DNA of 64,000 nucleotides from Syntrophaceae bacterium UBA4810 (GTDB lineage Bacteria > Desulfobacterota > Syntrophia > Syntrophales > Smithellaceae): positions 39,180 to 103,179 of the forward strand of contig DHGA01000037.1 of NCBI GenBank assembly GCA_002402545.1, in the 5' to 3' direction. Position 1 is the stretch's first letter, and the number at the start of each line of letters is the position of its first letter. Shown piece by piece: positions 38,541 to 55,701 of this stretch. A program made the position numbers and the translations under genes. A model generated the notes under the pieces. The model did no database searches, had not been told where the DNA came from, and was given only the letters and a program-made list of their open reading frames with translations.

Positions 38541-38768
38541 CATCAGGACATACTTAAAAGCCTTCCTCAATATATTGAGGTTCCGTCAAATATTGAGGGC
38601 AAACGGATCATTTCCCACCCTTCCGCTGTTCTATCTATTATTCTAATACACTGTTATTAAAGCACAAATAAGAACTTCCTATTATCATTCGATCATTGGT
38701 GTGTTTTTTGCTCTTATCACTTTTGTGTGAGGTTTAACTCACTCAATTTTTCTAAATTTGTTCGCGGC

Positions 38769-41060
38769 ATGACTTTGAATGACCTTATGAAAAATGATGA
38801 TAAGACAAAGAAGCAGCTCATAGATGAACTGACTCAATTACGCTCAGAATCTTCCGGGGTGGAAAAGACCCGGAAAGAACTGGAATCGATTAAAATGTCC
38901 GAAGGTGCAGCCCGCGAATACTCAGAGAGCATCATCGACACCGTGCGTGAACCATTAATCGCTCTGGATCAGGATTTAAGGGCGGTCTCCGTCAGCCGCT
39001 CTTTTTATAAAGTCTTTAAGGTAAAACCCGAAGAGACCGTGGGACAGCGTATCTATGACCTGGGCAATAAACAATGGGGCATCCCCGAACTTCGGGAGCT
39101 GCTCGAAGAAGTCCTTCCTGAAAAAGAAGCATTTGACGACTTCGAGGTTGAACATAATTTTGAGAACATCGGTCACAAAGTTATGCTGCTCAATGCCCGC
39201 CAAATACACCGGAAAGACATCGGCGCAAAGATGATCCTCCTGGCCATTGAGGACATAACCGTGCGCAGAGAGATAGAAAAGGGGTTGGAAGAAACCCGTA
39301 AAGAACTGGCCGTAGCTAAAATATCCGAAGATGCAGCCCGCGAATACGCCGAGAGCGTTATCAACACGGTGCGTGAACCTTTAATAGCTCTGGATCAGGA
39401 TTTAAGAGTAATCACCGCCAGCCGTTCCTTTTACAGCTTCTTTAAGGTTAAACCTGAAGAGACCGTGGGACGGCTTATCTATGAACTCGGCGACAAACAA
39501 TGGGATATCCCCAGACTGCGGGAACTGCTGGAAAACATCCTTCCCCAAAAGACAACCTTTGATAGCTATGAGGTGGAACACGATTTTGCCACTATTGGCA
39601 GCCGCATAATGCTTTTAAATGCCCGGCAAATTAAAAGAGTTTTCGGAAAAGAGCGGATCATTCTTCTGGCCATTGAAGACATCACCGAGCGCAAGCAACT
39701 GGAAGGTATATTAATAGATTCCGAAGAGCAATACAGGCGTCTTTTTGAGACCGCCAGCGACGCGATAATACTATTAGAAAAACGCAAAGGGGAAATAGCC
39801 AACGTGAATCCGGCAACCGAAAAGTTGCTGGGCTATACCAATAAGGAGAGCATCGGCAATACGCTTCAAGACATTGGCGTGTTGCTCGATATGGGTAATT
39901 TTCAGACGACAATACAAAATTTGAACAAGAGCGGCATTCTTAATTACGATGATGTTCCGGTAAAGACCAAGTCCGGACAACTTATCAATACGGATATCTA
40001 TCTCGCCAACCGAGCAAAGTTGATACAATGCAATATTTGTGACATTACCGAGCGCAAGCAGCAAGAGGAGGATATGCTCAGGACAAATACATTGCTAAAC
40101 TCGATTATCGAGAATATTCCTACTATGCTCTTCCTCAAGAACGCCAAGGACCTCCGGTTCGTCCGCTTCAACCGGGCAGGAGAGGAGTTACTCGGTCAAT
40201 CCAGGGATGACCTGATCGGGAAGAGCGATTATGATTTCTTTCCGAAGACGCAAGCGGACTTCTTTACACAGAGCGACCGGGATGTTCTTTTTGGAAAAAA
40301 GCTTATTGATATTCCTGAAGAGCATATCCAAACCACCCAGGGAGAAAAAATCCTGCACACAAAGAAGCTCCCGCTTCTAAACGAGAAGGGGGAGCCCTCG
40401 TTCCTGCTTGGGATTTCCGAGGACATCACCGAACAGAAAAAGAACGAGGAAAAACTCAAAAATGCGCTTGAGAATCTCAGGAGCGCGTTGAACTCGATCA
40501 TTCATGTTTTGGTGTCCGCTGTGGAGTCCAGAGATCCCTATACGTCCGGCCACCAGATCCGGACGGCGAACCTTGCCTTTGCCATTGCCACAGAGATGGG
40601 TTTACCTCACGAAAAAATTGAAGCCATCCGCATGGCGGGTCCAATTCATGATATCGGGAAATTATCGATCCCAGCGGAGATATTATCCAGGCCTACCAAG
40701 CTGACGGAACTCGAGTTTTCCCTGGTTAAAGAACACTCCCGGGCGGGATACGAAATTCTGAAGGATGTGGAATCACCCTGGCCATTGGCAGAGATTGTTT
40801 ATCAGCACCATGAACGGATGGATGGTTCAGGTTATCCAAGAAAATTGAAAGGTGATGAGATTCTACTGGAAGCCCGTATTATGGCTGTGGCTGATGTTGT
40901 GGAAGCAATGGCCTCCCATCGTCCCTATCGCCCCGCTTTAGGTATTGATGTGGCCACAGAGGAAATCAGGAAAAATAGAGGAACCCTCTATGATGCCGAT
41001 GCCGTAGATGCCTGCCTGAGATTATTTCGGGAAAAAGGCTACCGCCTTCCAACGGCATGA
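38769..41060 (+). CDS. Multi-PAS - HD-GYP domain protein (no receiver domain)
   Basis: A tandem duplicated unit of about 110 aa ('AAREY.ES.I.TVREPLIALDQDLR...LLAIEDIT.R'), further PAS units, and HD-GYP 'DPYTSGHQIRT..HDIGK..HHERMDGSGYP'. Start uncertain (38727 GTG, or 38769/38787 ATG). Confidence 0.85.
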   Translation: MTLNDLMKNDDKTKKQLIDELTQLRSESSGVEKTRKELESIKMSEGAAREYSESIIDTVREPLIALDQDLRAVSVSRSFYKVFKVKPEETVGQRIYDLGNKQWGIPELRELLEEVLPEKEAFDDFEVEHNFENIGHKVMLLNARQIHRKDIGAKMILLAIEDITVRREIEKGLEETRKELAVAKISEDAAREYAESVINTVREPLIALDQDLRVITASRSFYSFFKVKPEETVGRLIYELGDKQWDIPRLRELLENILPQKTTFDSYEVEHDFATIGSRIMLLNARQIKRVFGKERIILLAIEDITERKQLEGILIDSEEQYRRLFETASDAIILLEKRKGEIANVNPATEKLLGYTNKESIGNTLQDIGVLLDMGNFQTTIQNLNKSGILNYDDVPVKTKSGQLINTDIYLANRAKLIQCNICDITERKQQEEDMLRTNTLLNSIIENIPTMLFLKNAKDLRFVRFNRAGEELLGQSRDDLIGKSDYDFFPKTQADFFTQSDRDVLFGKKLIDIPEEHIQTTQGEKILHTKKLPLLNEKGEPSFLLGISEDITEQKKNEEKLKNALENLRSALNSIIHVLVSAVESRDPYTSGHQIRTANLAFAIATEMGLPHEKIEAIRMAGPIHDIGKLSIPAEILSRPTKLTELEFSLVKEHSRAGYEILKDVESPWPLAEIVYQHHERMDGSGYPRKLKGDEILLEARIMAVADVVEAMASHRPYRPALGIDVATEEIRKNRGTLYDADAVDACLRLFREKGYRLPTA

Positions 41061-41259: not shown

Positions 41260-41415
41260 ATGAATCTACCTAAAAATCTCGGCATACTGTTGTTGGGTAT
41301 CTGGCTCATCATCCATGGGCTGATACAGGTGTTGGCTCTCAGTTTTTCCGGGCTCTATTTACTCATGGGCATCTTCGCCATCATCATCGGCGTTTTGCTC
41401 ATCCTACAGCGATAA
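41260..41415 (+). CDS. Small hydrophobic membrane protein (51 aa), not in the ORF track
   Basis: My own translation is MNLPKNLGILLLGIWLIIHGLIQVLALSFSGLYLLMGIFAIIIGVLLILQR*. RBS AAAGGAG lies 8 nt upstream. Two predicted TM helices. Confidence 0.5.
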   Translation: MNLPKNLGILLLGIWLIIHGLIQVLALSFSGLYLLMGIFAIIIGVLLILQR

Positions 41416-41431
41416 TCCGAAATGATTCGTG

Positions 41432-41673: not shown

Positions 41674-41702
41674 TTGACAGACAATGTTGTATTTCCTATA
41701 CT
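41674..41702 (+). promoter_or_regulatory. Near-consensus sigma70 promoter upstream of the Ssp-like operon (TTGACA-17-TATACT)
   Basis: TTGACA at 41674-41679, exactly 17 nt of spacer, and TATACT at 41697-41702. Lies about 60 nt upstream of ATG 41766. Confidence 0.55.
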
Positions 41703-41765: not shown

Positions 41766-42734
41766 ATGCAATTATTAAAAAATATCCGTTATTCTGGACA
41801 TGAAACTTTTGTATGTCGATATGCATGGTTGCCAAAGGCTGTGTCGGCGGTAGTAAATGATTCAGCCATCCTTGCCTCGGCCAATGAAGACAAGGCTATG
41901 GTAGAGCTAGGGGTGGGCAAAAATATGGTTCGGTCAATCCGTTTTTGGGCAGAAGCTTCCGCAATTATTACGGCTACAAAAGAAGGACATGAAGTATCTG
42001 AATTTGGCAAGCAGATACTTTTGAACGATGATGCTCTTGATCCTTTCCTCGAAGATGTTCAAACACTTTGGCTCATTCACTGGAAACTAGCCACAAATCA
42101 AAAGGCTCTTATTTTTTCATGGGAATATCTGCTAAATCAATTTCATGAACCTGAGCTTTATACCTCGGCAGTTGTTCGTGCATTTACAAAAGCTTTATCT
42201 CAAAATTCTGATAAAAAAATCTCTCAGGGCTCTCTAGAACAACTATTTGATGTTTTCCTGCATTCATATGTTCCGACACGAGGGCGTAAAGGCGAAGTCC
42301 GTGAGGATAACCTTGATTGTCCTTTGGTTGAGCTAGAGTTCTTGCACCATTCAGGGTTCACCAAGTCGGCTTTATACCAGGGCCGGCAGGAAGCAAAATA
42401 TGTATTTCGCCAAGAAGAAAAGCCCGAAATTAGTCAAGCCCTCTTCGCTTTTTGTTTGGAAGAATTTTGGCAGAATAGGTTTTTATCAGGGGAAGTAGTC
42501 GAGCAATCCATTCCCTTCCATGCAATTGTTTCAAGCCATGGCAGTCCGGGACAGGTTTTTAAGATTCCTGAACATGATATCAGGACTCGACTGTATGGTG
42601 TTGAGAAACAAACCGATGGCTTCTTCACTTTTGAAGAATCTGCTGCGATACCTCGGGTAGTACGGCATGATGATACCCAAGGTGCGCTTCCATCACTTGC
42701 CAGTATTTATCAACGGGAAACTGCAAATGCATAA
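41766..42734 (+). CDS. sspB: DUF4007-like protein (SspB-like, phosphorothioation system component)
   Basis: N-terminus 'YSGHETFVCRYAWLPKAV' matches my recollection of the DUF4007 'GHETF..R..WL.K' signature. Context is immediately upstream of a large P-loop ATPase and a PAPS-reductase-like gene, as in sspBCD. Confidence 0.65.
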   Translation: MQLLKNIRYSGHETFVCRYAWLPKAVSAVVNDSAILASANEDKAMVELGVGKNMVRSIRFWAEASAIITATKEGHEVSEFGKQILLNDDALDPFLEDVQTLWLIHWKLATNQKALIFSWEYLLNQFHEPELYTSAVVRAFTKALSQNSDKKISQGSLEQLFDVFLHSYVPTRGRKGEVREDNLDCPLVELEFLHHSGFTKSALYQGRQEAKYVFRQEEKPEISQALFAFCLEEFWQNRFLSGEVVEQSIPFHAIVSSHGSPGQVFKIPEHDIRTRLYGVEKQTDGFFTFEESAAIPRVVRHDDTQGALPSLASIYQRETANA

Positions 42735-45700
42735 TGTGTACATGTCCTCATTGCATCAATATTCAAATCGTTTCCTCCGCTCAACAGATCTATTGCGTGA
42801 TTTTGATGACCCCAATGGGCTACAGGGATATTGTTTAACCGACTTCGGGCTTTCTTGCATGCATCGTATTTCCGAAGGATTAAAAACAAATTCAAGTCGA
42901 CGTGCTTGGCGTTTGACCGGTGATTTCGGTTCCGGAAAATCTTCTTTTGCGCTGTTTCTTGCCAATGCTCTGCGGGATGCTAAGAGACGTTTGCCGAAAG
43001 AATTGCACGAGCTTGTTATTGCAGAAATTCCAGAAATAAAAAAAACACACTATGTTCCTGTTCTAATAGTTGGAAATCGTGGAGCTATAGCCCCGGCTAT
43101 ACTTCGTGCGTTGCAGGTTGTGCTTAAGGAATTATTTTCACGTGGGACAAAATCTGCAGTTGAGCTTGCTATTGAAAAAATGCTGCAGAAAAAAAAGTTT
43201 TCGGATGATGAGGCTCTTCATCTGATTCGTGAAGCAAATATTAAGATCATTCAGAGTGGTAAAGCAAGTGGCATGCTCCTTATTCTTGATGAGGTTGGAA
43301 AACACCTTGAATTTGCCGCATTACATCCCGAACTGCAAGATATATATTTCCTACAGCAATTGGCTGAAATGGCTAGCCGAAGTGGTAAACAACCTTTTAT
43401 GTTTATTTGCTTACTGCATCAGGGATTTAATGCTTATGCTGAGCAGTTGACACAAGCGACGCAGCGTGAGTGGGAAAAGATATCCGGTAGGTTTGATGAA
43501 ATAATATTTCAACAACCACTGGATCAAATTGCTTTGCTGATATCATCTGCACTGAATCCTGTTATTGAGAAAATCCCTCTTGAGTTTAAAAAAGCCTCAT
43601 TGCAATCATTAAACAAAGCAATTGAATTAGGTTGGTTCGGCACAACTGCAAGACGAGACAACCTACATAGGTTCCACAACGGTCTTTTCCCTCTAGACCC
43701 TATGGTTCTTCCAGTCTTAGTACGTACGTTTCAACGATATGGGCAAAACGAACGTTCCCTTTTTAGTTTTTTATCTGCACATGAACCATTTGGGTTGCGC
43801 AGTTTTTCAAATAGGCCACTGTCAAATAAAAGTCATTTATATCAGCTTGCTGATTTTTATGATTACGCGAGAGCCAATTTTGGTCATCGTCTTGCGGTTG
43901 CTAGTTATCGCACTCATTGGAATGTCATAGAATCGATTATAGAAGCTAGAACCACTGATAATCCCTTGGAGCTGCGCGTTCTTAAAACGGTCGGCATTCT
44001 CAATTTGCTTAACTCTGATGATTTTCTTCCTACAGAAGATGCTATCTGCTGGGCGGTTGGTTGTCTTTCTCAAAATATGAGACAAGCTGTCAAGAAACAG
44101 CTTGGTAAATTAAATAAGGAACATGTTATTTATTTCCGCGGAGCCGCACGCGGGTACTCGCTTTGGCCATATACGAGCGTTGATATCGAGGGGCGCTTAG
44201 AAGAAGCAAAAAAAGTTATTCCACAGGTTCCTCAAATTGCCCAAGCTATAACAGAACAAATTGATAGCCGGCCAATTGTTGCACGAGCTCATTATATAAA
44301 AACAGGGAATCTCCGTTACTTCGATATTATGTATTGTAAGCCAAATGATTTAGTTGAAAAAGCCGTTAAGCATAAAAGTCAGGCTGACGGACTTATTCTG
44401 ATACCATTATGCGAAACTCAGGAAGAACACAAGCAGGCTAAGGCAAATGCTCTTTTATTTGAAAGGCGAGATGATGGGTTGATTCAGCTTGTTGCGGTGC
44501 CTCAACCACTTAGTTATTTGCAGCCGGTTGTTTTGGATGCCCAGCGATGGGAATGGGTGCAGACAAATACGCCAGAACTTAAGGATGATCGATTTGCTGC
44601 CGAGGAGGTTCATCTTCATTTACAAGAAGCCCGCAACCGTCTTCAAAAACAGCTACAATCTTATATAGGCTTAAATAAAAATTCAAACCGTTCTACTTTG
44701 ACATGGTTCTATCTTGGGGATGAGTATTCAAAGTTATCCGGACGAGAAGTACTTAGTTGGTTGTCTGAAATTTGCGACAAAACATTTACCAAAGCGCCAG
44801 TAATTAAGAATGAGTTGATAAACCGTAACAATATTAGCTCAGCTGCTGCTGCTGCGCGAATGCGTTTGTTGGAATTGATGTTTTCAAATGCAGATAAGGA
44901 AGATCTTGGCCTGCAGGAAGATCGAAAGCCTCCAGAAAAATCCATGTATCTTTCTGTGCTTAAAAAAGCTGGGTTACACTTTGCGCAAAATGGCAAATGG
45001 CAAATAGCCCTTCCAGTCGGGAAAGATACCTCTAATGTTAAGCCAACGCTTATAAAAATACAAAAAATTATTTCAAAGCACCCTGATAACCGGATTTCAA
45101 TTCGAGAACTTATAGACAAACTGCGCCGCCCACCATATGGTTTACGTGATGGTCTCTTCCCCATCTTTCTTGCTGTGATCGCTATAATTGACGAACAAGA
45201 AATTGCTTTTTATGAAAATGGTACGTTCTTGGCAGAAATGGGCAAAGATGCTTTTCTCAGGATGATAAAGGTCCCTGAAAAATTTGATATCCAGTATTGT
45301 AAAATCGAGGGTGTCCGCTCAGCACTTTTTCATAAATTGGCCGTGGCCTTAGAACTCATTGAAAATAACAATCAAAAAGTTGAATTACTAGATGTTGTCC
45401 GAAAACTTTGCCAGTTTGTTGCTCATTTACCTGATTATGTTCTCAACACGAAGCGTATTTCTGCAAAGGCTTTGGCTGTTCGGACGGTTATAATGGATGC
45501 TCGTGAGCCTGTACGAATGATATTTCATGATTTGCCCGTTGCATGCGGTTTTCACGCATTTGAAGTAAACAAGCCGGTAGCTATAAAAGAAGCTCAGCAA
45601 TTTGTGGAAAAACTCAAAGGATCGCTTGATGAACTTCGAGGCACTTTTATAAATCTTCAACGCCGGATTGATAAGGGTATAGCAAAAGAATTTGGATATA

Positions 45701-46188
45701 GCGATCAGCGTGCCGGTCAATATCGTTCAAATTTAGCTGCCCGTGCTGAACAATTGCTTTTACAGATAGAAGAAAGCAAGTTGAAAGCATTTGCTTTCAG
45801 AATATTTGATGAGGGGTTATCTGAGTCTGAATGGTTGGAATCCGTCGGGAGTCTACTCGCATTACGACCACCAAGCAGATGGAAAGATGATGATGAAGAT
45901 ACCTTTCAAAGAGAATTAGAAAACATTTCTAGCCGCTTTAAAAGGGCTGAAAGTATCGTTTACGCGAATGGTGGTGGTAAATCTAAAACTAGTTTACGGA
46001 TTGCGGTTACTAAGGCTGATGGATCAGAGCGTCAGGAAGTAATTCATTTTGATGTGCAAGAAGAAAATGTTTTGAAAAATATCCAAAATCAGATAGCAGA
46101 AATAATTGAAAAAAATGAACGTCTCGGCGTAGCAGCAGCCTCGCGTGCTATCTGGACTCGTTTAAAATCAATCGAGGAAGATAAATGA
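42727..46188 (+). CDS. sspC: Large P-loop NTPase (SspC-like)
   Basis: Walker A 'GDFGSGKSSFAL', Walker B 'MLLILDEVGKH', and a long helical C-terminal region. The start (ATG 42727 or 42742) overlaps or abuts the sspB-like stop. The stop overlaps the next ATG (ATGA at 46185). Confidence 0.6.
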   Translation: MHNVYMSSLHQYSNRFLRSTDLLRDFDDPNGLQGYCLTDFGLSCMHRISEGLKTNSSRRAWRLTGDFGSGKSSFALFLANALRDAKRRLPKELHELVIAEIPEIKKTHYVPVLIVGNRGAIAPAILRALQVVLKELFSRGTKSAVELAIEKMLQKKKFSDDEALHLIREANIKIIQSGKASGMLLILDEVGKHLEFAALHPELQDIYFLQQLAEMASRSGKQPFMFICLLHQGFNAYAEQLTQATQREWEKISGRFDEIIFQQPLDQIALLISSALNPVIEKIPLEFKKASLQSLNKAIELGWFGTTARRDNLHRFHNGLFPLDPMVLPVLVRTFQRYGQNERSLFSFLSAHEPFGLRSFSNRPLSNKSHLYQLADFYDYARANFGHRLAVASYRTHWNVIESIIEARTTDNPLELRVLKTVGILNLLNSDDFLPTEDAICWAVGCLSQNMRQAVKKQLGKLNKEHVIYFRGAARGYSLWPYTSVDIEGRLEEAKKVIPQVPQIAQAITEQIDSRPIVARAHYIKTGNLRYFDIMYCKPNDLVEKAVKHKSQADGLILIPLCETQEEHKQAKANALLFERRDDGLIQLVAVPQPLSYLQPVVLDAQRWEWVQTNTPELKDDRFAAEEVHLHLQEARNRLQKQLQSYIGLNKNSNRSTLTWFYLGDEYSKLSGREVLSWLSEICDKTFTKAPVIKNELINRNNISSAAAAARMRLLELMFSNADKEDLGLQEDRKPPEKSMYLSVLKKAGLHFAQNGKWQIALPVGKDTSNVKPTLIKIQKIISKHPDNRISIRELIDKLRRPPYGLRDGLFPIFLAVIAIIDEQEIAFYENGTFLAEMGKDAFLRMIKVPEKFDIQYCKIEGVRSALFHKLAVALELIENNNQKVELLDVVRKLCQFVAHLPDYVLNTKRISAKALAVRTVIMDAREPVRMIFHDLPVACGFHAFEVNKPVAIKEAQQFVEKLKGSLDELRGTFINLQRRIDKGIAKEFGYSDQRAGQYRSNLAARAEQLLLQIEESKLKAFAFRIFDEGLSESEWLESVGSLLALRPPSRWKDDDEDTFQRELENISSRFKRAESIVYANGGGKSKTSLRIAVTKADGSERQEVIHFDVQEENVLKNIQNQIAEIIEKNERLGVAAASRAIWTRLKSIEEDK

Positions 46189-46988
46189 CCGAAAGACACA
46201 TATTAGGACTATCTGGTGGCAAGGATAGCACAGCCCTAGCTCTTTTTATGCGCGATAAGGTTCCAGACATGGAATATGTTTTCTGCGATACCGGAAGTGA
46301 ACTTGATGAAACAATCAATTATTTAAATCAAGTAGAAGCTTATTTGGGTAAAAAGATTATTCGTCTTAATCCAAATGCAACATTTGATCACTGGCTTGAA
46401 GTATTCAATGGCTATCTCCCTGCACCAAATATGCGGTGGTGCACTAAATTGCTAAAGTTGCGCCCCTTTGAGGAATATGTCGGTGGTGGGAATGTGGTGA
46501 GTTATGTCGGTATTCGAGCCGATGAAGATCGTGTTGGCTATATTAGTACAAAACCAAATATTAAAGCTGTTTTTCCCTTTAAAGAGCATGGCATTGATTA
46601 TGATGGTGTAATGAAAATACTGATAGATAGTGGCATTGGTCTACCGCCATATCTTAATTGGGGACGATCACATTCCGGGTGTTATTTTTGTTTTTTTCAG
46701 AAACCAATAGAATGGGTCCTTTTGCTTGAAAATTATCCACGACTTTTTGATAAGGCACAATCATACGAAAAAATAAGGCATGAGCCTGGTAAGACATTTA
46801 CGTGGATTCAGAATATGCCCCTCAGCGAATTGCGCAAACCGGAAAACATTGAGAGGATTAAAGAAAAACACAAAGAAATAATTGCGCGACATAAGCAATC
46901 GCGTCCGAATAAGAAACTCGTAGAGGTATTTGCTGGATTAGAGATTGATGATAGTGAGCCAAAATCTTGTTTGATCTGTCAACTATAA
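46185..46988 (+). CDS. sspD: PAPS reductase-like PP-loop ATP pyrophosphatase (SspD/DndC-like)
   Basis: PP-loop 'LGLSGGKDSTA', 'RWCTKLLK', and Cys motifs 'SGCYFCFF' and 'CLICQ'. Confidence 0.8.
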   Translation: MTERHILGLSGGKDSTALALFMRDKVPDMEYVFCDTGSELDETINYLNQVEAYLGKKIIRLNPNATFDHWLEVFNGYLPAPNMRWCTKLLKLRPFEEYVGGGNVVSYVGIRADEDRVGYISTKPNIKAVFPFKEHGIDYDGVMKILIDSGIGLPPYLNWGRSHSGCYFCFFQKPIEWVLLLENYPRLFDKAQSYEKIRHEPGKTFTWIQNMPLSELRKPENIERIKEKHKEIIARHKQSRPNKKLVEVFAGLEIDDSEPKSCLICQL

Positions 46989-46997
46989 GGAGGAACA

Positions 46998-48140
46998 TTG
47001 ACTCAATACAGTATAAAATTTATTTTTACTACTTGGTCAATTAAAGAATTGTTAAATCTTTACAATAGGGGGCACCTTGATCTCAGCCCAAGTTATCAAA
47101 GAAATACGATTTGGTCCATGGCAGCTCAGCGCCGCCTAATTAGTACAATTAAAAGTGGTTATCCACTTCCAAACTTTTTTGTTCATAAAAGAGATAAAAA
47201 TAATTATGAAATGGTTGATGGCCAACAGCGATCTCGATCAATTCTAGCATATTCCTTAGGTGACTTAAGAGATGAAGATGGACAGATTCTCTCTCCGCAC
47301 GTTAAATCATCCGCTCAAGCTAAAGACTTCATGCGTTATTTTGAGGAATATAAACTTAATGTATGCATTATTGATCAAGGGGTAGACCAAAGAGACATCG
47401 AAAACTTTTACGTCTTAGTGAATTCGTCAGGCTTGCGTCTTAATGCGCCGGAATTACGCAAAGCAGGATATAGCGATACACGCGTTTTGAAACTAGCAAC
47501 TTTTTTAGCAAACTCTGCAGAATTTGAATCACTTCGACTTTTTACAGAACGCTCATCAGATAGAATGAATGATATTGATTTTGTTTCAGAACTCTTAGCA
47601 TTTCTGCAATATGGCTTTTCAGATAAGAAAGAGAAGGTTGATGAGCTGTATGAAAAAGATATTAATTCTGAAGAAGAGGACAAGTTAAAAAAAGATCTGT
47701 TTGAAGTACTCAAATTAATAAATAATTTCGAAAAAATAGCACCAATATTTAAAACACGGTTCAAACAAAAGAACGATTTTTATACATTGTTTGCTTTTAT
47801 TTATTTAAATAAAAGGCTGCCAAAAGAAGCATTTGAATATTTTTACAAGACATTACTAGCTCTAAGTTCTCATATTCGTCCCTATCAGGAAATGTGTGAG
47901 CCTCTAAGAGAATATGCCCTTAATTGTGTCTCTCAATCAAACTCGAAAAATGCTCGAGATCGCCGACACCAATTCTTTCAAGATTTATTTCTTAACAAAG
48001 ATAGCATCCCTAATAAAACGCAGTTGGCTATTGCTGAGTATTTTAAATTTGAAAAAAACAAATTTGAAAAGAATTGGGGGTTTTTATTGCTTCCTTTGGA
48101 AAAATTGAATTTGGTTAATGATAACTCCGGAGTCGCTTAA
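46998..48140 (+). CDS. DUF262 (ParB-like NTPase/nuclease superfamily) protein without a DUF1524/HNH domain
   Basis: 'LDLSPSYQRNTIWS...LISTIKSGYPLPNFF...MVDGQQRSRSI' is the DUF262 signature (DGQQR). 380 aa with a helical C-terminus and no H-N-H motif. TTG start 4 nt after the RBS AAGGAGG. Confidence 0.8.
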   Translation: MTQYSIKFIFTTWSIKELLNLYNRGHLDLSPSYQRNTIWSMAAQRRLISTIKSGYPLPNFFVHKRDKNNYEMVDGQQRSRSILAYSLGDLRDEDGQILSPHVKSSAQAKDFMRYFEEYKLNVCIIDQGVDQRDIENFYVLVNSSGLRLNAPELRKAGYSDTRVLKLATFLANSAEFESLRLFTERSSDRMNDIDFVSELLAFLQYGFSDKKEKVDELYEKDINSEEEDKLKKDLFEVLKLINNFEKIAPIFKTRFKQKNDFYTLFAFIYLNKRLPKEAFEYFYKTLLALSSHIRPYQEMCEPLREYALNCVSQSNSKNARDRRHQFFQDLFLNKDSIPNKTQLAIAEYFKFEKNKFEKNWGFLLLPLEKLNLVNDNSGVA

Positions 48141-48142
48141 GT

Positions 48143-49072
48143 ATGCATTTCAAACGACGAAATTTTATTTTGGACGGCGTTTCAACCAAAAAGGATTTTA
48201 TTGAAATAGATAATATTACATATGAGCTATTACCTATCGAGCCATCCGATGAGAAAAAAGGTCGTGGGGTTAATTCCACTGTTTTTCTTGCAAAAAGAGC
48301 TGATGATGATGATAGCGAGCCGTTAGCAATTAAAATATGTAACTTCCCCAAAGATGATGAAAATGAGCGGAACCTTAAACGCAAAGAGAGATTTGAAAGA
48401 GAAATTCTAGCGTTTAAGAAAATTAACTCTGAAGTAGTGAAGAGTCGTGTTATAGATCTTATTACTGATGGCTGGCTTAAGTATAAAGAAAAACAATTTC
48501 GTTGTTTTATAATGGAAAAAGCTGACTACACATTACTCAATTTTCTAGAAGACCAACAGGATTTGAGTCTGCAACAGAAACTGGTCTTGTGTTTTGAGCT
48601 GTTACAAAGCTTTAAGCAACTTCATGATTTGGGGATTTATCATAGAGATATTAAGCCTGAAAACATCTTATTTTGTGGGGGTATTTGGAAAGTAGCAGAT
48701 TTAGGGTTGATAGCTTATCGAACTGATGATTTTATAATTGATGATCATAATGAAAAAATTGGCCCCTGGCCATGGATGTCACCAGAGGCAGTCAATAAAG
48801 CGCGTGCACTCGAACATTGTAGAGAAGCATATAATATCGACTGTAATATTGATGAAGGATCAGATATTTTCCAATTAGGAAAAGTGTTTTGGTTTGTTTT
48901 ACAGGGCGAAATACCAAACGGAATTACATCAATCCGTGATTGGCATTCTTATCACAATGATATTTATGGTAACTTACTCAAACCGGCATTATATTTCAAT
49001 AAATCTGATCGTCCAACAATTTCTGATTTATTAAGTAAAATAAGACAACTTGGAAATAAGCATGGCTTGTAA
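48143..49072 (+). CDS. Eukaryotic-like Ser/Thr protein kinase
   Basis: Beta-3 Lys 'LAIKI', catalytic loop 'YHRDIKPENILF', 'VADLGL' (DFG-equivalent) and 'WMSPEAV' (APE-equivalent). Starts 2 nt after the DUF262 gene stop. Confidence 0.85.
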   Translation: MHFKRRNFILDGVSTKKDFIEIDNITYELLPIEPSDEKKGRGVNSTVFLAKRADDDDSEPLAIKICNFPKDDENERNLKRKERFEREILAFKKINSEVVKSRVIDLITDGWLKYKEKQFRCFIMEKADYTLLNFLEDQQDLSLQQKLVLCFELLQSFKQLHDLGIYHRDIKPENILFCGGIWKVADLGLIAYRTDDFIIDDHNEKIGPWPWMSPEAVNKARALEHCREAYNIDCNIDEGSDIFQLGKVFWFVLQGEIPNGITSIRDWHSYHNDIYGNLLKPALYFNKSDRPTISDLLSKIRQLGNKHGL

Positions 49073-49231: not shown

Positions 49232-51667
49232 ATGATGCAAGAACTTTTCAGACATTTGTACGATGCCCCTACTGAAGATGTAGTTGAATCAATTGTGAAG
49301 AACAATGCTATTTTTAAAGATTCAATAAGTTGGCGTCCATATGGTGGCACTGAAAGCAATTTTAGTGTTGTGGAGAATCAACAAGCTAGTCCGGTGGCTG
49401 CGCTTGTTGAGAAATTAACAAATTCTATTGATGCCCTATTAATGAAGAAATGTTATGAAGCTGATGTCAACCCAATGTCCTCCGCAGCTCCTAAAACGAT
49501 GGATGAAGCAGTTCGAAAATTTTATGAGTATGAAAATTTTGACTTACAGATGTATCGAAATACTATAGCAGAAGATATTCAGATACTTGCCGATCCAAAG
49601 AGCCCTAGAATGAACACCTCGATTATTATATACGATGATGGCGAAGGGCAAGATCCCCAGGAATTCCCAAATACTTTTATTTCTCTTCTTGCAGGCAACA
49701 AGAACGACATTAAATTTGTTCAAGGCAAATATAATATGGGCGGCGCTGGCGCTATTGTACATTGTGGAGAAAAGCGCTATCAGCTAATCGGTTCAAAAAG
49801 ATTTGACAATAAAGGAAACTTCGGCTTCACGCTAGTAAGGATGCACCCTTTAACAAAAGAGGAGGGACAAACCAAGAAAAATACTTATTATGAATATTTC
49901 TGCCCCAATGGTAAAATACCTGATTTTCCAATTGAAGAATTAGATTTAAATTTATATAAAAGGAAATTCAAAACTGGTACTATTATTAAACTTTATTCCT
50001 ATGATTTACCACCAGGCAGCAGATCGGTTATTTCAAGAGATCTAAATCAAAGCATTAATGAATATCTTCATAAACCCGCATTACCTATCTACATCATCGA
50101 CCGTAAGGAAAGATACCAGCATGATACAGGTCTGGAGCGTGTGATGTTCGGTCTATCAAATAGGATACAGGATCAATCATCAAAGTATGTTGAACGACAA
50201 ATAACTCTCAATATTACGGGGAATCAAGATATTGGTAATATTAAGGTTTATGCTACACTATTTAAATTACACAATGAAGAAAAATCAGTAAAAGAATTTA
50301 AAGAGACTATACAAAATGAATTTTTTAAAAATAACATGAGTGTTGCTTTCAGCCTTAATGGTCAAGTTCATGGTTACTATACATCTGAATTTATAACAAG
50401 AGCATTGAAGTGGAAGTTATTTAAAGACTATCTATTGATTCACGTTGATTGTACCAATTTAAATCTACATTTAAGAAACAACCTATTTATGGCTTCAAGA
50501 GATCGTCTTAAAAATGGGAAAGAAGCAGAAGAGGTTAGGCAGATTCTTGCTGACAGGTTGAAAAAGAGCGAATTAAATGACATTTATAAGCAACGTAAAG
50601 ATTCTTTCTCTGCTGAAACGAGTAATGCGAATGATATTCTAAAAGCATTTTCAAAAGATCTTCCTTTAAATCCTGAGATGCTTAAGCTGCTTAAACAGAC
50701 ATTCAAGCTGGAAGATATATGTAAGGATAAAAAGAATGAAAAGAAAAAGAAGGATAAAAAGAAAAAAAATGCAGAAAATAAAGAACCTTTTATATCCCAT
50801 CGTTTTCCTTCTATTTTTAAAATAGAGGGTAAGCCTGATAAAGATGGGAAAGTTATAAAAACTATTTCACTCGGATATAATCGGACTATAAAATTCAGCA
50901 CTGATGTGGAAAATGAATATTTTGATAGGATCAAAGATAGAGGAGAATTAAAGATTTATGTTTTAAGGCAAGGTTCCAAAGGTGGAAGGGGTGATGATAT
51001 TGTTCCGCCCACAGAAATTGAAGATTACTTTCAAGTTGTCAAGTCTAATCCCCATGACGGCACTATAAGAGTAAATCTTCAACCAAAAGACAATCTCAAG
51101 GTCGGGGATGAGCTGCAGATCCAAGCTAGCCTGTCTTCTATCGTTTCTCCAGAAGAAGCAATAGAAACGATTTTTTATGTAAAAATTGAAAAAATGAAAG
51201 AAAAAGAACCAAAGCTTGAAGGGCCTGACGCGCCTCAAATTGGATTACCAGAGCTAATTCTTGTTTACAAAGATGAAAGAGAAAATGTTACGACTTGGGA
51301 TAATGTCGCTGGGTTGGGCGTTTCTTTTGATGAGCAAGAGATAATGTATCCACTTTCTAATGAAAATGATGAACTTGAAAAAATATTCATAAATATGGAT
51401 AGCAGCCTGCTGAGAACTTATAAATCAAAATTTGATGGAGATGAAGCTTTGAGAGTAGCAGATAATAAATATGTGGCTCAGGTCTATTTTCATACACTGT
51501 TCTTATTCTCAATACTTAAGCAAAAAAACTATAACTATTACCTAAACGATAATAACCGTTCCGAGAAGACACTGGAAGAAGTTCTACAGGACTTATTTAA
51601 ATCCAGTTATGGGGAGTTTCTGATCAGATTTGGTGGAACAGAAGAATTAATCAACGCCATTGACTAA
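49232..51667 (+). CDS. GHKL (HATPase_c-type) ATPase domain protein, 811 aa, with large uncharacterised C-terminal region
   Basis: N box 'EKLTNSIDAL', G1 'IYDDGEGQ', G2 'GKYNMGGAGA'. Lys-rich linker 'KDKKNEKKKKDKKKKNAENKE'. RBS GGAGG upstream. Confidence 0.7.
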   Translation: MMQELFRHLYDAPTEDVVESIVKNNAIFKDSISWRPYGGTESNFSVVENQQASPVAALVEKLTNSIDALLMKKCYEADVNPMSSAAPKTMDEAVRKFYEYENFDLQMYRNTIAEDIQILADPKSPRMNTSIIIYDDGEGQDPQEFPNTFISLLAGNKNDIKFVQGKYNMGGAGAIVHCGEKRYQLIGSKRFDNKGNFGFTLVRMHPLTKEEGQTKKNTYYEYFCPNGKIPDFPIEELDLNLYKRKFKTGTIIKLYSYDLPPGSRSVISRDLNQSINEYLHKPALPIYIIDRKERYQHDTGLERVMFGLSNRIQDQSSKYVERQITLNITGNQDIGNIKVYATLFKLHNEEKSVKEFKETIQNEFFKNNMSVAFSLNGQVHGYYTSEFITRALKWKLFKDYLLIHVDCTNLNLHLRNNLFMASRDRLKNGKEAEEVRQILADRLKKSELNDIYKQRKDSFSAETSNANDILKAFSKDLPLNPEMLKLLKQTFKLEDICKDKKNEKKKKDKKKKNAENKEPFISHRFPSIFKIEGKPDKDGKVIKTISLGYNRTIKFSTDVENEYFDRIKDRGELKIYVLRQGSKGGRGDDIVPPTEIEDYFQVVKSNPHDGTIRVNLQPKDNLKVGDELQIQASLSSIVSPEEAIETIFYVKIEKMKEKEPKLEGPDAPQIGLPELILVYKDERENVTTWDNVAGLGVSFDEQEIMYPLSNENDELEKIFINMDSSLLRTYKSKFDGDEALRVADNKYVAQVYFHTLFLFSILKQKNYNYYLNDNNRSEKTLEEVLQDLFKSSYGEFLIRFGGTEELINAID

Positions 51668-51760: not shown

Positions 51761-52540
51761 ATGCAGGACTCGAATAAGAAGCCAAAACATGTGTCATGGA
51801 GAAATCATTTTTTAAAATGGGAGGCCAAATTACTCTTGATTATGTTTGCTGTTATTTTCTTTTGGGTATTTTTCTTCATTCCTGATTCAGTCACCGTGTG
51901 GATAGCCTCACGAATCGGTGTGGCAAAAAATATTGGAGGCGTGATTTTCACATTCATAACTTCAAGTGTAATTGTTACAACATTTGGACGGTTTCTAATC
52001 GGCGATCCTTTGCTCTATGGCAACTCTACCGCGTCTCTCTATTTTAGAGGAGAATTTCCAAGTAACAAGTTGGTTACGAAGTTGAAGGTAGATCCTAAAT
52101 ATGCCACTCAGGTCTTTATAAATTATTACGATTGCTGGCAATTTGATAGTGAGCCACAGCATGAATTATATCTTGCAACTACTAAAGTTCACTATAATTG
52201 TCTATTCGTTTATTTATTAAAACCAACATTTTATGTCTTGCTATTTCTTTCTTTCTTGCTTTTATTTCTGAATATATTCTATTTAGAAAATCCGCTATCA
52301 AATACCGCAGGGCAAGGAATCATCTTATCTGTTTTTGTAATATGTACCATTCTTCTTATATCCTTCAATAGATTGCCGTCTGAACAAAGGGCTACTCCGA
52401 CAGGCTGTTGGGCAGCATGGAGGCATCGTTGTGAGGAGAATTATATGGAATTTTTGGCTGCCCTTGGAAACAAAACATTATCAGATTTTCTTGTCGAAAC
52501 GCGAGCAAAGCTGCAAGATTTGAAGAATAGATCTATATAG
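51761..52540 (+). CDS. Polytopic membrane protein, hypothetical
   Basis: Strong RBS AAAGGAGG. At least 4-5 hydrophobic segments (e.g. 'LLLIMFAVIFFWVFFFI', 'VIFTFITSSVIVTTF', 'VLLFLSFLLLFLNIFY', 'IILSVFVICTILLISF'). No recognisable family. Confidence 0.55.
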   Translation: MQDSNKKPKHVSWRNHFLKWEAKLLLIMFAVIFFWVFFFIPDSVTVWIASRIGVAKNIGGVIFTFITSSVIVTTFGRFLIGDPLLYGNSTASLYFRGEFPSNKLVTKLKVDPKYATQVFINYYDCWQFDSEPQHELYLATTKVHYNCLFVYLLKPTFYVLLFLSFLLLFLNIFYLENPLSNTAGQGIILSVFVICTILLISFNRLPSEQRATPTGCWAAWRHRCEENYMEFLAALGNKTLSDFLVETRAKLQDLKNRSI

Positions 52541-52558: not shown

Positions 52559-53104
52559 ATGGCAAAAGCCTCTTTGTTTTCCTCAATTGCGATTACTGAT
52601 CTGGAGACTACTGGAACTGATCCAAGATTACACGAGATCATAGAAATTGGGTTAATATTAATTGACCAGCACTCACTTATAATTTTAGATAGTCTTGATT
52701 TGAAAGTGAAGCCAGAACACATTGAGACAGCATCAGAAAGTGCCCTAAAACTAAATGGGTACAACGCAATTGATTGGCAGGATTCAATAAGTCTCAAAGA
52801 GACAATGGAGCTATATAGCCACAAAACCTCTGGTGCGCTTTTTTGCTCACATAATGTTACCTTTGATTGGTCTTTCATTAATGAGGCTTTTCATATAACC
52901 GGGGTTGAGAATAAAATGGATTATCATCGGTTGGATCTTTTTACCATGGCATGGGTATTATTGAGAAAATCAAATATTGAAAAATTTAGTTTGGATAAAA
53001 TTTCATCATTTCTTGGCCTTGAAGAGGAACAAATTCCTCATCGCGCGATTAACGGGGCAAGAAAAGCATATGAAGTATTGAAAAGATTAGTTTCCTCAAC
53101 GTAA
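52559..53104 (+). CDS. DnaQ/RNase T-like 3'-5' exonuclease domain protein (ExoIII motif degenerate)
   Basis: ExoI 'AITDLETTG' and ExoII 'SHNVTFDWSFI'. The ExoIII-like 'HRAINGA' has Gly where H-x4-D is expected. Confidence 0.7.
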   Translation: MAKASLFSSIAITDLETTGTDPRLHEIIEIGLILIDQHSLIILDSLDLKVKPEHIETASESALKLNGYNAIDWQDSISLKETMELYSHKTSGALFCSHNVTFDWSFINEAFHITGVENKMDYHRLDLFTMAWVLLRKSNIEKFSLDKISSFLGLEEEQIPHRAINGARKAYEVLKRLVSST

Positions 53105-53194: not shown

Positions 53195-55381
53195 TTATTG
53201 TCCGTTCATTTTGGTGATTTTTGTTTTTGTCTCCTCGTTCAGGAAATACCACAGGCCGATTAGTTTGAGAGTTTCTACTTTCGGAATGCCGGCGGCGCTC
53301 CAGCCGCGTTCCTCATAATACACGCTGATCAGTTTTTTTAATTCTTCTTTTCTGTGCTTGATCAGAATTTCGCGCTTTTCAGCGGTTTTCATTTTTTGAA
53401 TTTCCGCCAGGGGCTTATTGAGAATAATGCCTAGCTGCTGATCGTGATAATCTTTTTCTGTTTCATAGAGGTTATCTTCTGTCGGGCCAATGGCTCTGTC
53501 AGGAATCCAGTCTTGTTCGCCCGTGTTCTTCCCGTAGGTCATTACATTCATCACCCGCTGTAAATTAATGTCTCTGTCTGTCTGCTCGAATATTTTTTCC
53601 CAGGTCATATTTGTGCCCAGCATGCCGTTATAAAAATCCGCGTAGATTTCCTGCGAGGCGGGATTGATGTAAATATCCGTATTCTTGCGCTTTTCTGATT
53701 CAGGATTAAAAACATCCACCCAAGGCAATTTGCACAGGCCCAGATTGTCATTGCCCAGGCGCACACGCGGATAAGTAATCAGCGCTTTTGCCTTATCCTG
53801 AAATGTCGGAAACGCGCCCAGCAAATCGGCTTTAATCAGCCAGGCGGCGGCATGATGCGCCCCGATATCGCTTGCGGCGGCATAAGATGCCTGCATGGAT
53901 AACGACCGGTGCGTTCGATAAAGAGAAAAAGGCAGCCCCTTAGTCTGCATGGCAAATCGTTCCAGTTCTTTTTTGGGATTGGGCTTACCGGTTCTTTTGG
54001 TGTATTGAGAAGCAATCCATGTGATCAGATCAAGCATGCCCGCGCCTGCGACTTTAGTTAAATCAGTTCCCTCGCAGGCAAGCTGATGAATAAATGTCAG
54101 CGCGGCTTGTTCATCGCCCCAGTTCAGTTCGAATTCATCTGTACCTTCTTTGGTCAAAAAGCCGCGCTGGTAGCATTCCATTAAAAAGGCCATAATTACA
54201 GCGGTGGTGATGGTATCTATCCCATAATTATCGCAATGCCAGTTTGCCTCCATAATAAATTCCGGACGCCACATGCCCAGGTTGGAACCGAAACCGGCGG
54301 CTGTTTCATATTCTGGGCCATCCACCCATACTTTGCGGCCTTTGTGTTCACCTGATGTCAACGTTACCCAGCCGCCTTTGGTGCATCTTAAATTACAGCC
54401 GGGAAAGCATCCGTCCATGCCGCGATGATCAAAAAGATGCTCGGCGTAAAATTTGCCGCAGATCTGATCCGCTTGCGGATGCGAGCCGAACTGATAATTG
54501 TTCACCGGTAAGGATTTATAGTCTTCCTTATTCATAAACGCGATCAAGCCAGCGGAGCCTTTGCGGTACATCTTGAGCGACTGCGGATCTACCTCTTTGA
54601 CAACATGGTGTAGTTTCGCGCCCGCCTTTTTCACCTTATCCCAATCGGCCGCGCCATACGGATTTTCACCCCGTGGATAATCGGCAAGAACAACAACGGC
54701 GCGGAGATTTTTTTGAATCATCACTGAACCAAGACCGGTGCGTCCCGCCTGCTTGCTGCGGTAAAGGCCTTTTGTTCCATCAACAGGTTTAACAGCATCA
54801 TAATAATGACTGTTGATACAGCCATAGGACGTATTGGCCGCGCCGATCCCTGTGGTTAAAAAAACGATATTCTTTTTTTCATAACCGGCGGCGGTAAACT
54901 GCTCAATGATAACTTTTTCCAGCTCGAAGACCTGATCAATAACCGGAGCTTTTTTTATGGATATTTCACCCTTGACGCTGTCGATTACAATCATGGTATT
55001 ATCTGGGGCAATGCCGGTTATCTCCAGCGCGTCGAATCCCGCGTATTTCAGATACGCGCCGAAATGACCACCGAAATTCGAGACGCCCGGAATATGCGTA
55101 AGGGGCGACAAGGAAATAGCCATACATTTGCTTGTGCCGGGAAATTGAGGAATGCCGCCCAGAGGCCCCGGCGCAAAGATCAGGGGATTTTCCGGAGCAA
55201 AGGCGTTTGTTTTACCGTTTATTTTTTTATGCAGCAGATAAAGCCCCAGCCCCCGGCCGCCGATAAAATAATCTCTGATCCGCGGCTCCAATGAATGGGC
55301 GGCAATTTTGCCGTCTTGTAAATCTATCGAAAGAATCTGATTGGCATATCCGTTTTGCAGCGCTGTTTTCGTATATTGCAT
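53195..55381 (-). CDS. aor: Aldehyde:ferredoxin oxidoreductase family (tungstopterin) protein
   Basis: N-terminus 'GYANQILSIDL..G.I' with 'IGGRGLG'. AOR-type blocks 'GRTGLGSVMIQKNLRAVVV' and 'DGPEYETAAGFGSNLG', and C-terminal 'YYEERGW'. ATG 55381 preferred. Confidence 0.9.
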   Translation of the reverse strand: MQYTKTALQNGYANQILSIDLQDGKIAAHSLEPRIRDYFIGGRGLGLYLLHKKINGKTNAFAPENPLIFAPGPLGGIPQFPGTSKCMAISLSPLTHIPGVSNFGGHFGAYLKYAGFDALEITGIAPDNTMIVIDSVKGEISIKKAPVIDQVFELEKVIIEQFTAAGYEKKNIVFLTTGIGAANTSYGCINSHYYDAVKPVDGTKGLYRSKQAGRTGLGSVMIQKNLRAVVVLADYPRGENPYGAADWDKVKKAGAKLHHVVKEVDPQSLKMYRKGSAGLIAFMNKEDYKSLPVNNYQFGSHPQADQICGKFYAEHLFDHRGMDGCFPGCNLRCTKGGWVTLTSGEHKGRKVWVDGPEYETAAGFGSNLGMWRPEFIMEANWHCDNYGIDTITTAVIMAFLMECYQRGFLTKEGTDEFELNWGDEQAALTFIHQLACEGTDLTKVAGAGMLDLITWIASQYTKRTGKPNPKKELERFAMQTKGLPFSLYRTHRSLSMQASYAAASDIGAHHAAAWLIKADLLGAFPTFQDKAKALITYPRVRLGNDNLGLCKLPWVDVFNPESEKRKNTDIYINPASQEIYADFYNGMLGTNMTWEKIFEQTDRDINLQRVMNVMTYGKNTGEQDWIPDRAIGPTEDNLYETEKDYHDQQLGIILNKPLAEIQKMKTAEKREILIKHRKEELKKLISVYYEERGWSAAGIPKVETLKLIGLWYFLNEETKTKITKMNGQ

Positions 55382-55701
55382 GTTGTATGTGTCCTTGGCA
55401 AATAAGTAACGCACACTAGAGCAAACATCTTAAAAAATCAATAATAAAAAGACATTAAGGCTTTCTATAAATTACAAACCTCTTTTTGGTGTCGCTATCT
55501 AAAACCAAATCCTCAAAATGCGCGGGTGCTTTCAGCAGTCAGTTCTTCCTGAAGTCCATATTTGACATAACCCATAAGAAGATGTTACTTTTACCTTCAC
55601 AATTGCTAAAATGATGTGGCCATAAAAGCTCTTTTTATAGCGCGTTCTTTAAGGAAAGATTGTTTGATAACAAAGCATTTGATCAAAGAAAGGAAAATGC
55701 C

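Follow-up and report, generated by a model that had tools for sequence, protein, structure and literature searches.

The DNA analysed here is a stretch of 64,000 nucleotides from Syntrophaceae bacterium UBA4810 (contig DHGA01000037.1, positions 39,180 to 103,179 of the forward strand), referred to below as the window. It carries an sspBCD locus, which belongs to the Ssp type of systems writing phosphorothioate (PT) marks into DNA. Such systems characteristically place PT in a single strand, within a short motif such as 5′-CpsCA-3′. The locus is part of a low-GC island of approximately 41.4–53.2 kb (GC 0.34–0.41 from ~41 to 53 kb against 0.45–0.48 in the flanks) with eight genes on the same strand: sspB, sspC and sspD, and five further genes downstream. 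The initial annotation ended the system at position 46988, the end of sspD, and thereby cut the operon short: the next gene starts only 9 nt further on, and five more genes were missed. The island is likely to be an Ssp-type PT system with its own partner genes in place of the known SspE or SspFGH. Its features, including the open reading frames (ORFs) numbered here 4 to 8, are:

41674..41702, + strand: candidate sigma-70-type promoter, TTGACA-17-TATACT, by consensus match only, 64 nt upstream of sspB.
41766..42734, + strand: sspB, DUF4007 DNA-binding protein of 322 amino acids (aa) (PADLOC SspB and Pfam DUF4007).
42727..46188, + strand: sspC, BrxC/PglY-like P-loop ATPase, 1153 aa (PADLOC SspC), in an open frame from 42667.
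46185..46988, + strand: sspD, PP-loop ATP pyrophosphatase of the PAPS-reductase family, 267 aa (PADLOC SspD).
46998..48140, + strand: ORF4, DUF262 (GmrSD_N, ParB-like) NTPase, 380 aa, with no nuclease domain (Pfam GmrSD_N).
48143..49072, + strand: ORF5, Hanks-type Ser/Thr protein kinase, 309 aa (Pkinase).
49232..51667, + strand: ORF6, GHKL-type ATPase of an unnamed Ssp-linked family, 811 aa (Bergerat motifs).
51761..52540, + strand: ORF7, multi-pass membrane protein, probable accessory, 259 aa (long hydrophobic stretches).
52559..53104, + strand: ORF8, DEDDh (DnaQ/RNase T-like) 3′-5′ exonuclease, probable accessory, 181 aa (RNase_T).

The first three genes (41766–46988) almost certainly encode a genuine SspBCD PT-writing core, as judged from their matches to family models. 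The 322-aa product of 41766–42734, which the initial annotation had described as DUF4007-like, does contain GHETFVCRYAWLPK and matches Pfam DUF4007 at 1e-65; its match to the PADLOC SspB model (4.4e-98) covers the whole profile. Both motifs reported for the P-loop ATPase, GDFGSGKSS (Walker A) and LLILDE (Walker B), are present, and the protein matches PADLOC SspC over its full length (E=0, 1279 bits), the next family being BrxC at 1.5e-126. In the 267-aa protein, correctly likened to PP-loop PAPS reductases, the motifs SGGKDS, RWCT and CYFC are found, with CLIC at the C-terminus. The PADLOC SspD model is matched at 1.4e-109 and Pfam PAPS_reduct at 2.3e-11, while the matches to DndC and BrxP are weak. 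The profile hidden Markov model searches (PADLOC, Pfam) that had been proposed as a check gave strong SspB, SspC, SspD, DUF4007 and PAPS_reduct matches. The SspB-SspC-SspD architecture therefore stands, with all three models matched in the published order and the genes tightly coupled by overlaps of 8 and 4 nt.

Translational coupling had also been proposed at both junctions. The ATGA overlap at 46185–46188 is real, whereas the ATG of the TAATG at 42734–42736 is out of the sspC frame. The in-frame starts of sspC are at 42727 and 42742. The likely start is the ATG at 42727, giving a protein of 1153 aa and an 8-nt overlap with sspB; it was chosen because the gene calls in loci L012 and L014 show an identical 8-nt sspB overlap. 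The PADLOC SspC alignment begins at residue 36 of the open frame. The near-consensus promoter described at 41674–41702 is present in the sequence and is the top-scoring promoter-like site of the 41.0–53.4 kb region (11/12), although such sites are overall no more numerous there than in shuffled sequences (36 compared with 38.2). Internal promoter and terminator scans of the island yielded nothing beyond shuffles and no convincing internal terminator.

As had been noted, no cysteine desulfurase gene is present: tblastn with an SspA/DndA-type query (E<=0.01) found none in the 64-kb window. The accompanying suggestion that sulfur is supplied by an IscS-type enzyme encoded elsewhere agrees with the literature (PMC8092258, PMC12914056). 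sspBCD is usually a three-gene operon, and sspA may be adjacent, located elsewhere or replaced by IscS (PMC8092258; PMC12914056); the experimentally studied Ssp system of V. anguillarum uses IscS (PMC8092258). The absence of a nearby sspA is ordinary for Ssp and does not define the operon, and SspBCD without sspA is in itself already known. Among SspD relatives, those of loci L022-L059 (Bacteroidota/Ignavibacteriota) align to the window SspD only over their first ~155 residues and have ~640 nt of extra coding space after the aligned part (~9360 to 10000). This would fit the described SspD variants that have additional domains at the C-terminus (PMC12839542).

The secondary matches raise the question of whether this is a BREX system, either type 4 (PAPS-reductase based) or type 2 (kinase based). 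SspC matches BrxC at 1.5e-126, SspD matches BrxP weakly, the kinase matches PglW weakly, and type 4 BREX and Ssp are known to share BrxC, PAPS reductase and DUF4007 (PMC12839542). Nevertheless, no island protein matches PglZ or BrxL (PADLOC, Pfam, NCBIfam), both of which are type 4 core genes (PMC12914056), and SspB and SspD are separate proteins which score far better on Ssp than on BREX models. A BREX assignment, of type 4 or type 2, was rejected on this basis and its probability appears negligible. The island proteins likewise show no match to SspE, SspF, SspG or SspH.

ORF4 begins with a TTG codon 9 nt past sspD, preceded by an AGGAGG Shine-Dalgarno sequence, and is separated from ORF5 by only 2 nt. 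Its family has over 1000 members, each about 375 aa long, and GmrSD_N (6e-19) is the only Pfam domain recognised in ORF4. In an alignment of 28 members, YQR33-35 is invariant, as are D74, G75, Q77 and R78 of DGQQR74-78, with Q76 replaced by K in 4 of the 28; no invariant His occurs among them. The AlphaFold2 model (pLDDT, predicted local distance difference test, 85) comprises a ParB-like N-terminal domain and a helical C-terminal domain. A Foldseek search with this model returned BrxU first (4e-4), then Noc/ParB, with SspE at rank 18. PDB sequence searches with the ORF4 family profile or with the N-terminal domain alone gave no match to SspE, DndI or BrxU. The possibility that ORF4 is itself SspE was considered and rejected, as it has no HNH/DUF1524 domain and no PADLOC SspE match at E<=10.

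ORF5 matches Pkinase at 4.4e-21 (Pfam) and PADLOC mad6 at 1.6e-25, as well as PD-T4-6, Stk2 and PglW. Among 58 distinct homologues, residues K64, E87, HRD167-169, K171, N174, DLG186-188 and P214-E215 never vary, and S213 is kept in 52. Both ORF4 and ORF5 look active from their conserved residues. PT-stimulated NTPase sensing by DUF262 domains is established for SspE and DndI (PMC11662687; PMC13251355), and S/T/Y kinase domains fused to DndF variants have been proposed as co-effectors (PMC10853773). In the methylation-associated defence system (MADS), the genes for MAD6, MAD7 and MAD8 are the mandatory ones, and defence depends on mad6. It is because of this requirement for MAD6, together with the DndF fusions, that we read the kinase as a defence output or switch. 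In another ssp locus (L181, 8826-11567), sspD is directly followed by the gene for a protein exceeding 1400 aa, which includes NERD and two Pkinase domains among others and resembles the DndF variants with an N-terminal NERD domain and tandem S/T/Y kinases (PMC10853773).

To survey the pair, one genome per species was scanned with the ORF4 family alignment and neighbours were mapped by tblastn. DUF262 relatives were divided into close (>=35% identity, that is at least 35%; 45 loci) and distant (27-31% identity; 35 loci). SspB, SspC and SspD lie upstream, in the same order and on the same strand, in all 38 close loci with enough upstream sequence, and a kinase gene lies directly downstream in all 42 with enough downstream sequence. 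They are spread over Bacteroidota, Verrucomicrobiota, Acidobacteriota, Elusimicrobia and Ignavibacteriota. By contrast, a single distant locus of the 35 has ssp genes, that of Sulfurimonas (L060, 29% identity), whose full order is sspBCD-DUF262-kinase-SspFGH. The pair also adjoins Ssp genes on RefSeq plasmids of Asticcacaulis and Pseudanabaena, where it is labelled merely 'DUF262 domain-containing protein' and 'protein kinase', and start-stop overlaps among the sspD, DUF262 and kinase genes are seen in relatives. By these counts of gene neighbourhoods, the DUF262-kinase pair is fixed to sspBCD.

ORF6, 160 nt further downstream, belongs to a family of more than 2700 homologues, every one labelled hypothetical; the closest named homologue is from a Syntrophales metagenome-assembled genome. 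The three motifs of the Bergerat fold are invariant in 30 aligned sequences: E60, N64 and D67-A68 (motif I), D135xGxG139 (motif II) and G165...G170-G171xG173 (motif III). HATPase_c_3 is matched weakly by 29 of the 30 members, the window protein scoring 20.1 bits, under the Pfam cut-off of 25. No match was found in PADLOC, NCBIfam, PHROGs or PDB sequences. The AlphaFold2 model is of moderate quality (pLDDT 65; pTM, predicted template modelling score, 0.43). With this model, Foldseek gave the 43-kDa ATPase fragment of GyrB as its top match (5e-7, ~430 aligned columns), with low TM-scores (template modelling scores) of 0.13/0.24. In the predicted layout, the GHKL ATPase domain is followed by a region resembling a transducer, then by a linker rich in Lys, by beta-rich domains and by a C-terminal helical part. 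The linker (KKNEKKKKDKKKKN) is modelled as disordered and is encoded at 50723-50768 by a short tandem stretch rich in AAG/AAA.

In a metagenome scan, an ssp core gene was found in the fetched flank of 54 of 80 ORF6 loci, and all 26 loci without ssp genes have less than 4 kb of flank on one side or both. Four hand-picked homologues all adjoin sspBCD, two of them without the DUF262-kinase pair. The ORF6 homologue is often on the strand opposite sspBCD. From these neighbourhoods the ORF6 family appears essentially ssp-specific, occurring almost only beside sspBCD. A different, shorter GHKL protein (~570-590 aa, MzaB-like) is also present in ssp loci (L096 12459-14706, L025 12120-19568, L180 7864-10923), accompanied by GIY-YIG-like, PLD-like, STAND/TPR, PC4 or SF2-helicase genes; more than one GHKL family therefore recurs beside Ssp cores.

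These linkage counts bear on the view that sspBCD acts here as an epigenetic orphan, and that the genes downstream serve defence, are unrelated to it and merely happen to share an island: a type IV-like restriction protein (DUF262), a PD-T4-6-like abortive infection kinase and a stand-alone GHKL protein (ORF6). It is true that defence genes tend to gather in islands, that PADLOC models of stand-alone systems (PD-T4-6, NsnA, PD-T4-2_A) are matched by the kinase and the DUF262 protein, and that a gap of 160 nt precedes ORF6. The association is, however, much tighter than expected from island co-localisation: 38/38 and 42/42 across several phyla for the pair, and 54/80 for ORF6 without an informative negative. 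The start-stop overlaps joining sspD, DUF262 and kinase genes in relatives and the absence of ssp genes from 34 of 35 distant DUF262 loci also argue against it. This view seems largely refuted already by the linkage counts and we regard it as very improbable. The downstream genes are very probably functional Ssp partners, and probably sensing or restriction modules.

The last two genes, ORF7 and ORF8, are separated by 18 nt. ORF7 has a weak PADLOC SLATT-type match (0.0015), and ORF8 matches RNase_T at 6.5e-14 (Pfam) and DEDDh at 8.5e-21 (PADLOC). A direct search for ORF7 relatives yielded a family of 9, and tblastn found no ORF7-ORF8 in the DUF262-centred loci. All five contexts found outside the window (L180-L184) are ssp loci in which the exonuclease is always beside the membrane protein. 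The arrangement varies: ORF7-ORF8-SspA-SspBCD in L180 and L181; SspD, GIY-YIG, DndB-like, ORF7, ORF8, ORF6 in L182; and SspH-ORF7-ORF8 in L183 and L184. Identity to the window pair is 56-86%, with 66-86% for the exonuclease, while the adjacent SspC is only 22-23% identical in L180 and L181. As the two genes are conserved far above the neighbouring SspC, they appear to move between different ssp loci, which suggests a mobile membrane protein-exonuclease cassette.

The positions around Ssp cores appear to be filled in a modular way. Among 39 close DUF262 loci with more than 6 kb past the DUF262 gene, the pair is followed by an ORF6 homologue (45-52% identity, often convergent) in 16, by SspA with PbeA-like and PbeC/LmuB-like genes in 11, by SspF-SspG-SspH in five (PADLOC 1e-210, 1e-194 and 0) and by other modules in seven. 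ORF6 alternates with the SspFGH and PbeA-like modules and therefore occupies the position of recognised PT restriction modules. The second type can be illustrated by L024 (12022-18270) and ten similar Bacteroidota loci (e.g. L028, L033, L036, L042, L050), in which sspBCD-DUF262-kinase is followed by SspA/DndA, then a PbeA homologue (E=0) and a PbeC/LmuB-like ABC ATPase. Here a module of the Pbe type, known from archaeal Dnd systems, is joined to a bacterial Ssp core.

The gap between sspD and ORF6 is itself variable. When it does not contain the window-type pair, it may carry a GIY-YIG protein with a DndB-like protein (14 loci), a second GHKL protein with an unknown protein (five loci), ParB_N, HTH and PD-DExK-like proteins (three loci) or DUF262 with SIR2 (three loci); in a further variant a DndB/DpdB-like protein stands alone. 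Examples of such modular gaps are L101, L102, L105, L106, L120-L122, L131, L137, L139, L141, L146 and L174. In most of the variants the recurring theme appears to be a ParB-superfamily NTPase beside a potentially toxic enzyme, and it is mainly because of this theme that ORF4 and ORF5 are read as sensor and effector. We tentatively propose, at less than even odds, that an unrecognised modular class of PT-dependent partner systems serves Ssp cores, made up of a sensor-effector pair, a GHKL clamp and sometimes an exonuclease cassette. As part of the same joint proposal, the sensor would be a ParB-like NTPase (DUF262, DndB-like or ParB_N) wired to a swappable effector, which may be a Ser/Thr kinase, SIR2, GIY-YIG or PD-DExK-like protein.

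For the locus in the window, the following scheme can be envisaged. SspBCD would write PT and so mark host DNA as self, the sulfur presumably coming, as the literature would suggest, from a cysteine desulfurase of the IscS/NifS type encoded outside the window. ORF4 would read PT status by NTP hydrolysis, as do the N-terminal domains of SspE and DndI, and, having no nuclease of its own, would relay the signal to the kinase ORF5. The latter may phosphorylate host, phage or system proteins and in this way stop infection or switch on the GHKL ATPase. ORF6, probably a dimeric ATP-driven clamp, would act on unmodified incoming DNA and take the slot filled by SspFGH or Pbe-like modules in sister loci, while ORF7-ORF8 may add DNA degradation or membrane-based cell suicide. 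The specific flow of signal from DUF262 protein to kinase to GHKL ATPase is, in this detail, less likely than not.

Several points weigh against this interpretation. The sampled contigs are not strictly phylogenetically independent, and the ORF7 family is small (9), so that its contexts possibly come from related organisms and the sample may be taxonomically narrow. In ORF6, a candidate restriction or DNA-clamping component by virtue of its genomic position, no domain of a nuclease or of any other effector was recognised. In PT systems, ParB-like proteins can also act as regulators, as DndB does, and the pair might instead tune modification.

This last point leads to an alternative in which the DUF262-kinase pair is a regulator of SspBCD, limiting or timing PT insertion, and not a defence effector. 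The kinase might phosphorylate SspB, SspC or SspD, and restriction would come only from ORF6 or the exonuclease. The alternative draws on the observation that the pair immediately follows sspD whichever module comes next (SspFGH, Pbe-like or ORF6) and on the lack of a nuclease domain in the DUF262 protein. It also stays alive because DndB-like proteins share the same slot between sspD and ORF6 in other ssp loci, DndB having been reported as an ATP-dependent negative regulator (PMC10853773). Yet the partners of the ParB-like genes in this slot are classic toxic effectors (SIR2, GIY-YIG, PD-DExK-like), the closest defence relatives of the kinase (MAD6, PD-T4-6, Stk2, PglW) come from defence systems, MAD6 among them being required for defence, and no pair of this kind is needed for DNA modification by characterised sspBCD cores (PMC8092258). 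We therefore consider a purely regulatory pair unlikely.

ORF6, in turn, could be on the modification side, remodelling or clamping DNA for sulfur insertion by SspBCD instead of restricting it. In three loci (L098, L115, L159) its homologue is directly downstream of, and co-directional with, a cysteine desulfurase gene, which could point to a modification role and so also counts against our interpretation. The lack of a recognisable nuclease domain would fit such a role, as would a linkage to sspBCD as tight as that of a core gene. However, the SspBCD cores that have been studied modify DNA in E. coli without ORF6 (PMC8092258), ORF6 swaps with SspFGH and PbeA-like modules in the close DUF262-kinase loci instead of co-occurring with them, and it is often encoded on the strand opposite sspBCD. 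A modification role for ORF6 is more improbable again than a regulatory pair, and we retain the reading of the downstream genes as partners which sense PT status or restrict DNA.

The wider interest of the locus lies in the many Ssp cores that stand without a known partner. In a survey of 2,678 sspBCD loci, 84% had no adjacent SspE or SspFGH; the survey left open whether these are orphans or have other restriction partners, and predicted other partners (PMC8092258). The window locus and its relatives provide concrete partner candidates for this 84%: the DUF262-kinase pair, the GHKL family and the membrane protein-exonuclease cassette. PADLOC and NCBIfam do not recognise any of them as part of an Ssp system. 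No kinase, DUF262-only or GHKL Ssp partner is described in the freely readable literature, including Dnd/Ssp comparative-genomics and BREX-diversity papers; this excludes subscription papers, among them the original 2020 SspABCD-SspE paper, and an earlier description of such partners is possible. Should the partners be confirmed, new models would be needed in defence-system finders, and a fresh check would be due for BLAST-based surveys which score any sspBCD-adjacent DUF262 gene as sspE. A link would also be made between PT sensing and kinase signalling, and MADS would be tied to the Ssp/SspFGH lineage. A modular partner class, if real, would account for a sizeable share of the ~84% of sspBCD loci called orphan, and the window locus would then be the first case of a DNA backbone mark read out by protein phosphorylation and not by a nuclease.

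The island is consistent with horizontal acquisition, as judged from its composition and surroundings. The exact locus is present on several metagenome contigs, apparently of one anaerobe. Its closest diverged relative is L010 (protein identity about 81-87%), which has another chromosomal neighbourhood, making a mobile island plausible. No tRNA gene was found anywhere in the 64-kb window, no meaningful direct or inverted repeats flank the island, and no integrase was found within ~36-57 kb, the part of the window annotated. Upstream, a gene at 38727-41060 encodes a multi-PAS HD-GYP-type sensor (cyclic di-GMP phosphodiesterase-like). Between this gene and the AT-rich region upstream of sspB is a 51-codon ORF (41261-41416), predicted as a gene on contig L001, whose product would be a highly hydrophobic peptide (MNLPKNLGILLLGIWLIIHGL...). 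Downstream, an aldehyde:ferredoxin oxidoreductase gene lies on the opposite strand (53195-55414) with ferredoxin-type genes beyond; these flanking genes therefore indicate an anaerobic host.

Of the known systems, SspABCD-SspE (Vibrio cyclitrophicus FF75, E. coli 3234/A, Streptomyces yokosukanensis) shares the SspB-SspC-SspD core and its order. SspE, like ORF4, is a DUF262 protein with QR and DGQQR NTPase motifs encoded after the core. In contrast to SspE, ORF4 is only 380 aa long, is fixed beside a separate Ser/Thr kinase and has no sspA nearby. Membership of this system was assessed by the SspE architecture: the N-terminal DUF262 domain with DGQQR is present, and a helical C-terminus takes the place of the DUF1524/HNH nuclease domain.

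SspABCD-SspFGH (Vibrio anguillarum FF-93) also has the same core, with IscS supplied from elsewhere, and sister loci of the window have sspBCD, the DUF262 gene and the kinase gene followed by SspF-G-H. In the window, by contrast, the 811-aa GHKL ATPase is in that position; SspF, SspG and SspH gave no PADLOC match in the island and no tblastn match in the window. The accessible portion of the published SspFGH description makes no mention of a DUF262-kinase pair.

MADS (Pseudomonas aeruginosa SMC4386) includes MAD6, which resembles ORF5 (1.6e-25, over positions 60-254 of a 659-position profile), and MAD7 and MAD8, which are resembled by SspG and the SspH C-terminus of sister loci. In L014 (12070-20751) and L012, SspG matches mad7 weakly (0.007) and the SspH C-terminus matches mad8 at 3e-21. 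The differences are that DNA is marked by methylation in MADS, not by PT, and that MAD6 is twice as long as ORF5. Membership of MADS was rejected, as the island has no MAD7, MAD8 or methyltransferase and the MAD6-like match is partial, covering the kinase domain only. These resemblances suggest that MADS is a relative, based on methylation, of the arrangement in which the kinase is combined with SspFGH; a link between MADS and SspFGH was not found stated in the accessible part of the MADS preprint.

DndB/DndBCDE systems resemble the window in placing a ParB-superfamily NTPase beside PT-writing genes, and DndB-like proteins occur in the same slot of other ORF6-containing loci. The window protein, however, is of the DUF262 and not the DndB family and is coupled to a kinase, and the core is of the SspC AAA+ type, not DndCDE. 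The type IV enzymes GmrSD and BrxU and the two-gene systems GrwAB and TgvAB share the DUF262 fold, BrxU being the best structural match of ORF4 (4e-4), and GrwB offers a precedent for a nuclease-less DUF262 protein acting with a partner (PMC12137116). Those systems attack modified DNA and have a DUF1524 nuclease in one subunit, whereas the window has no such nuclease and the partner is a kinase within a modification operon.

Prokaryotic MORC/paraMORC and MutL-like GHKL ATPases have, like ORF6, a Bergerat fold and a tie to DNA modification, and the fold may be followed in ORF6 by a GyrB-like transducer region. ORF6 differs in having no significant curated-family match beyond the sub-threshold HATPase_c_3, a distinct C-terminal half and a linkage specifically to sspBCD. 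BREX type 4 (BrxP-BrxC-PglZ-BrxL) has homologous BrxC-like, PAPS-reductase and DUF4007 parts and produces PT (PMC12914056; PMC12839542), while the window is without PglZ and BrxL and encodes DUF4007 and PAPS reductase in separate genes. Since the defining feature of each was tested for and is lacking here, the locus is distinct from SspABCD-SspE, SspABCD-SspFGH, BREX type 4 and MADS, yet it is a member of the Ssp modification family.

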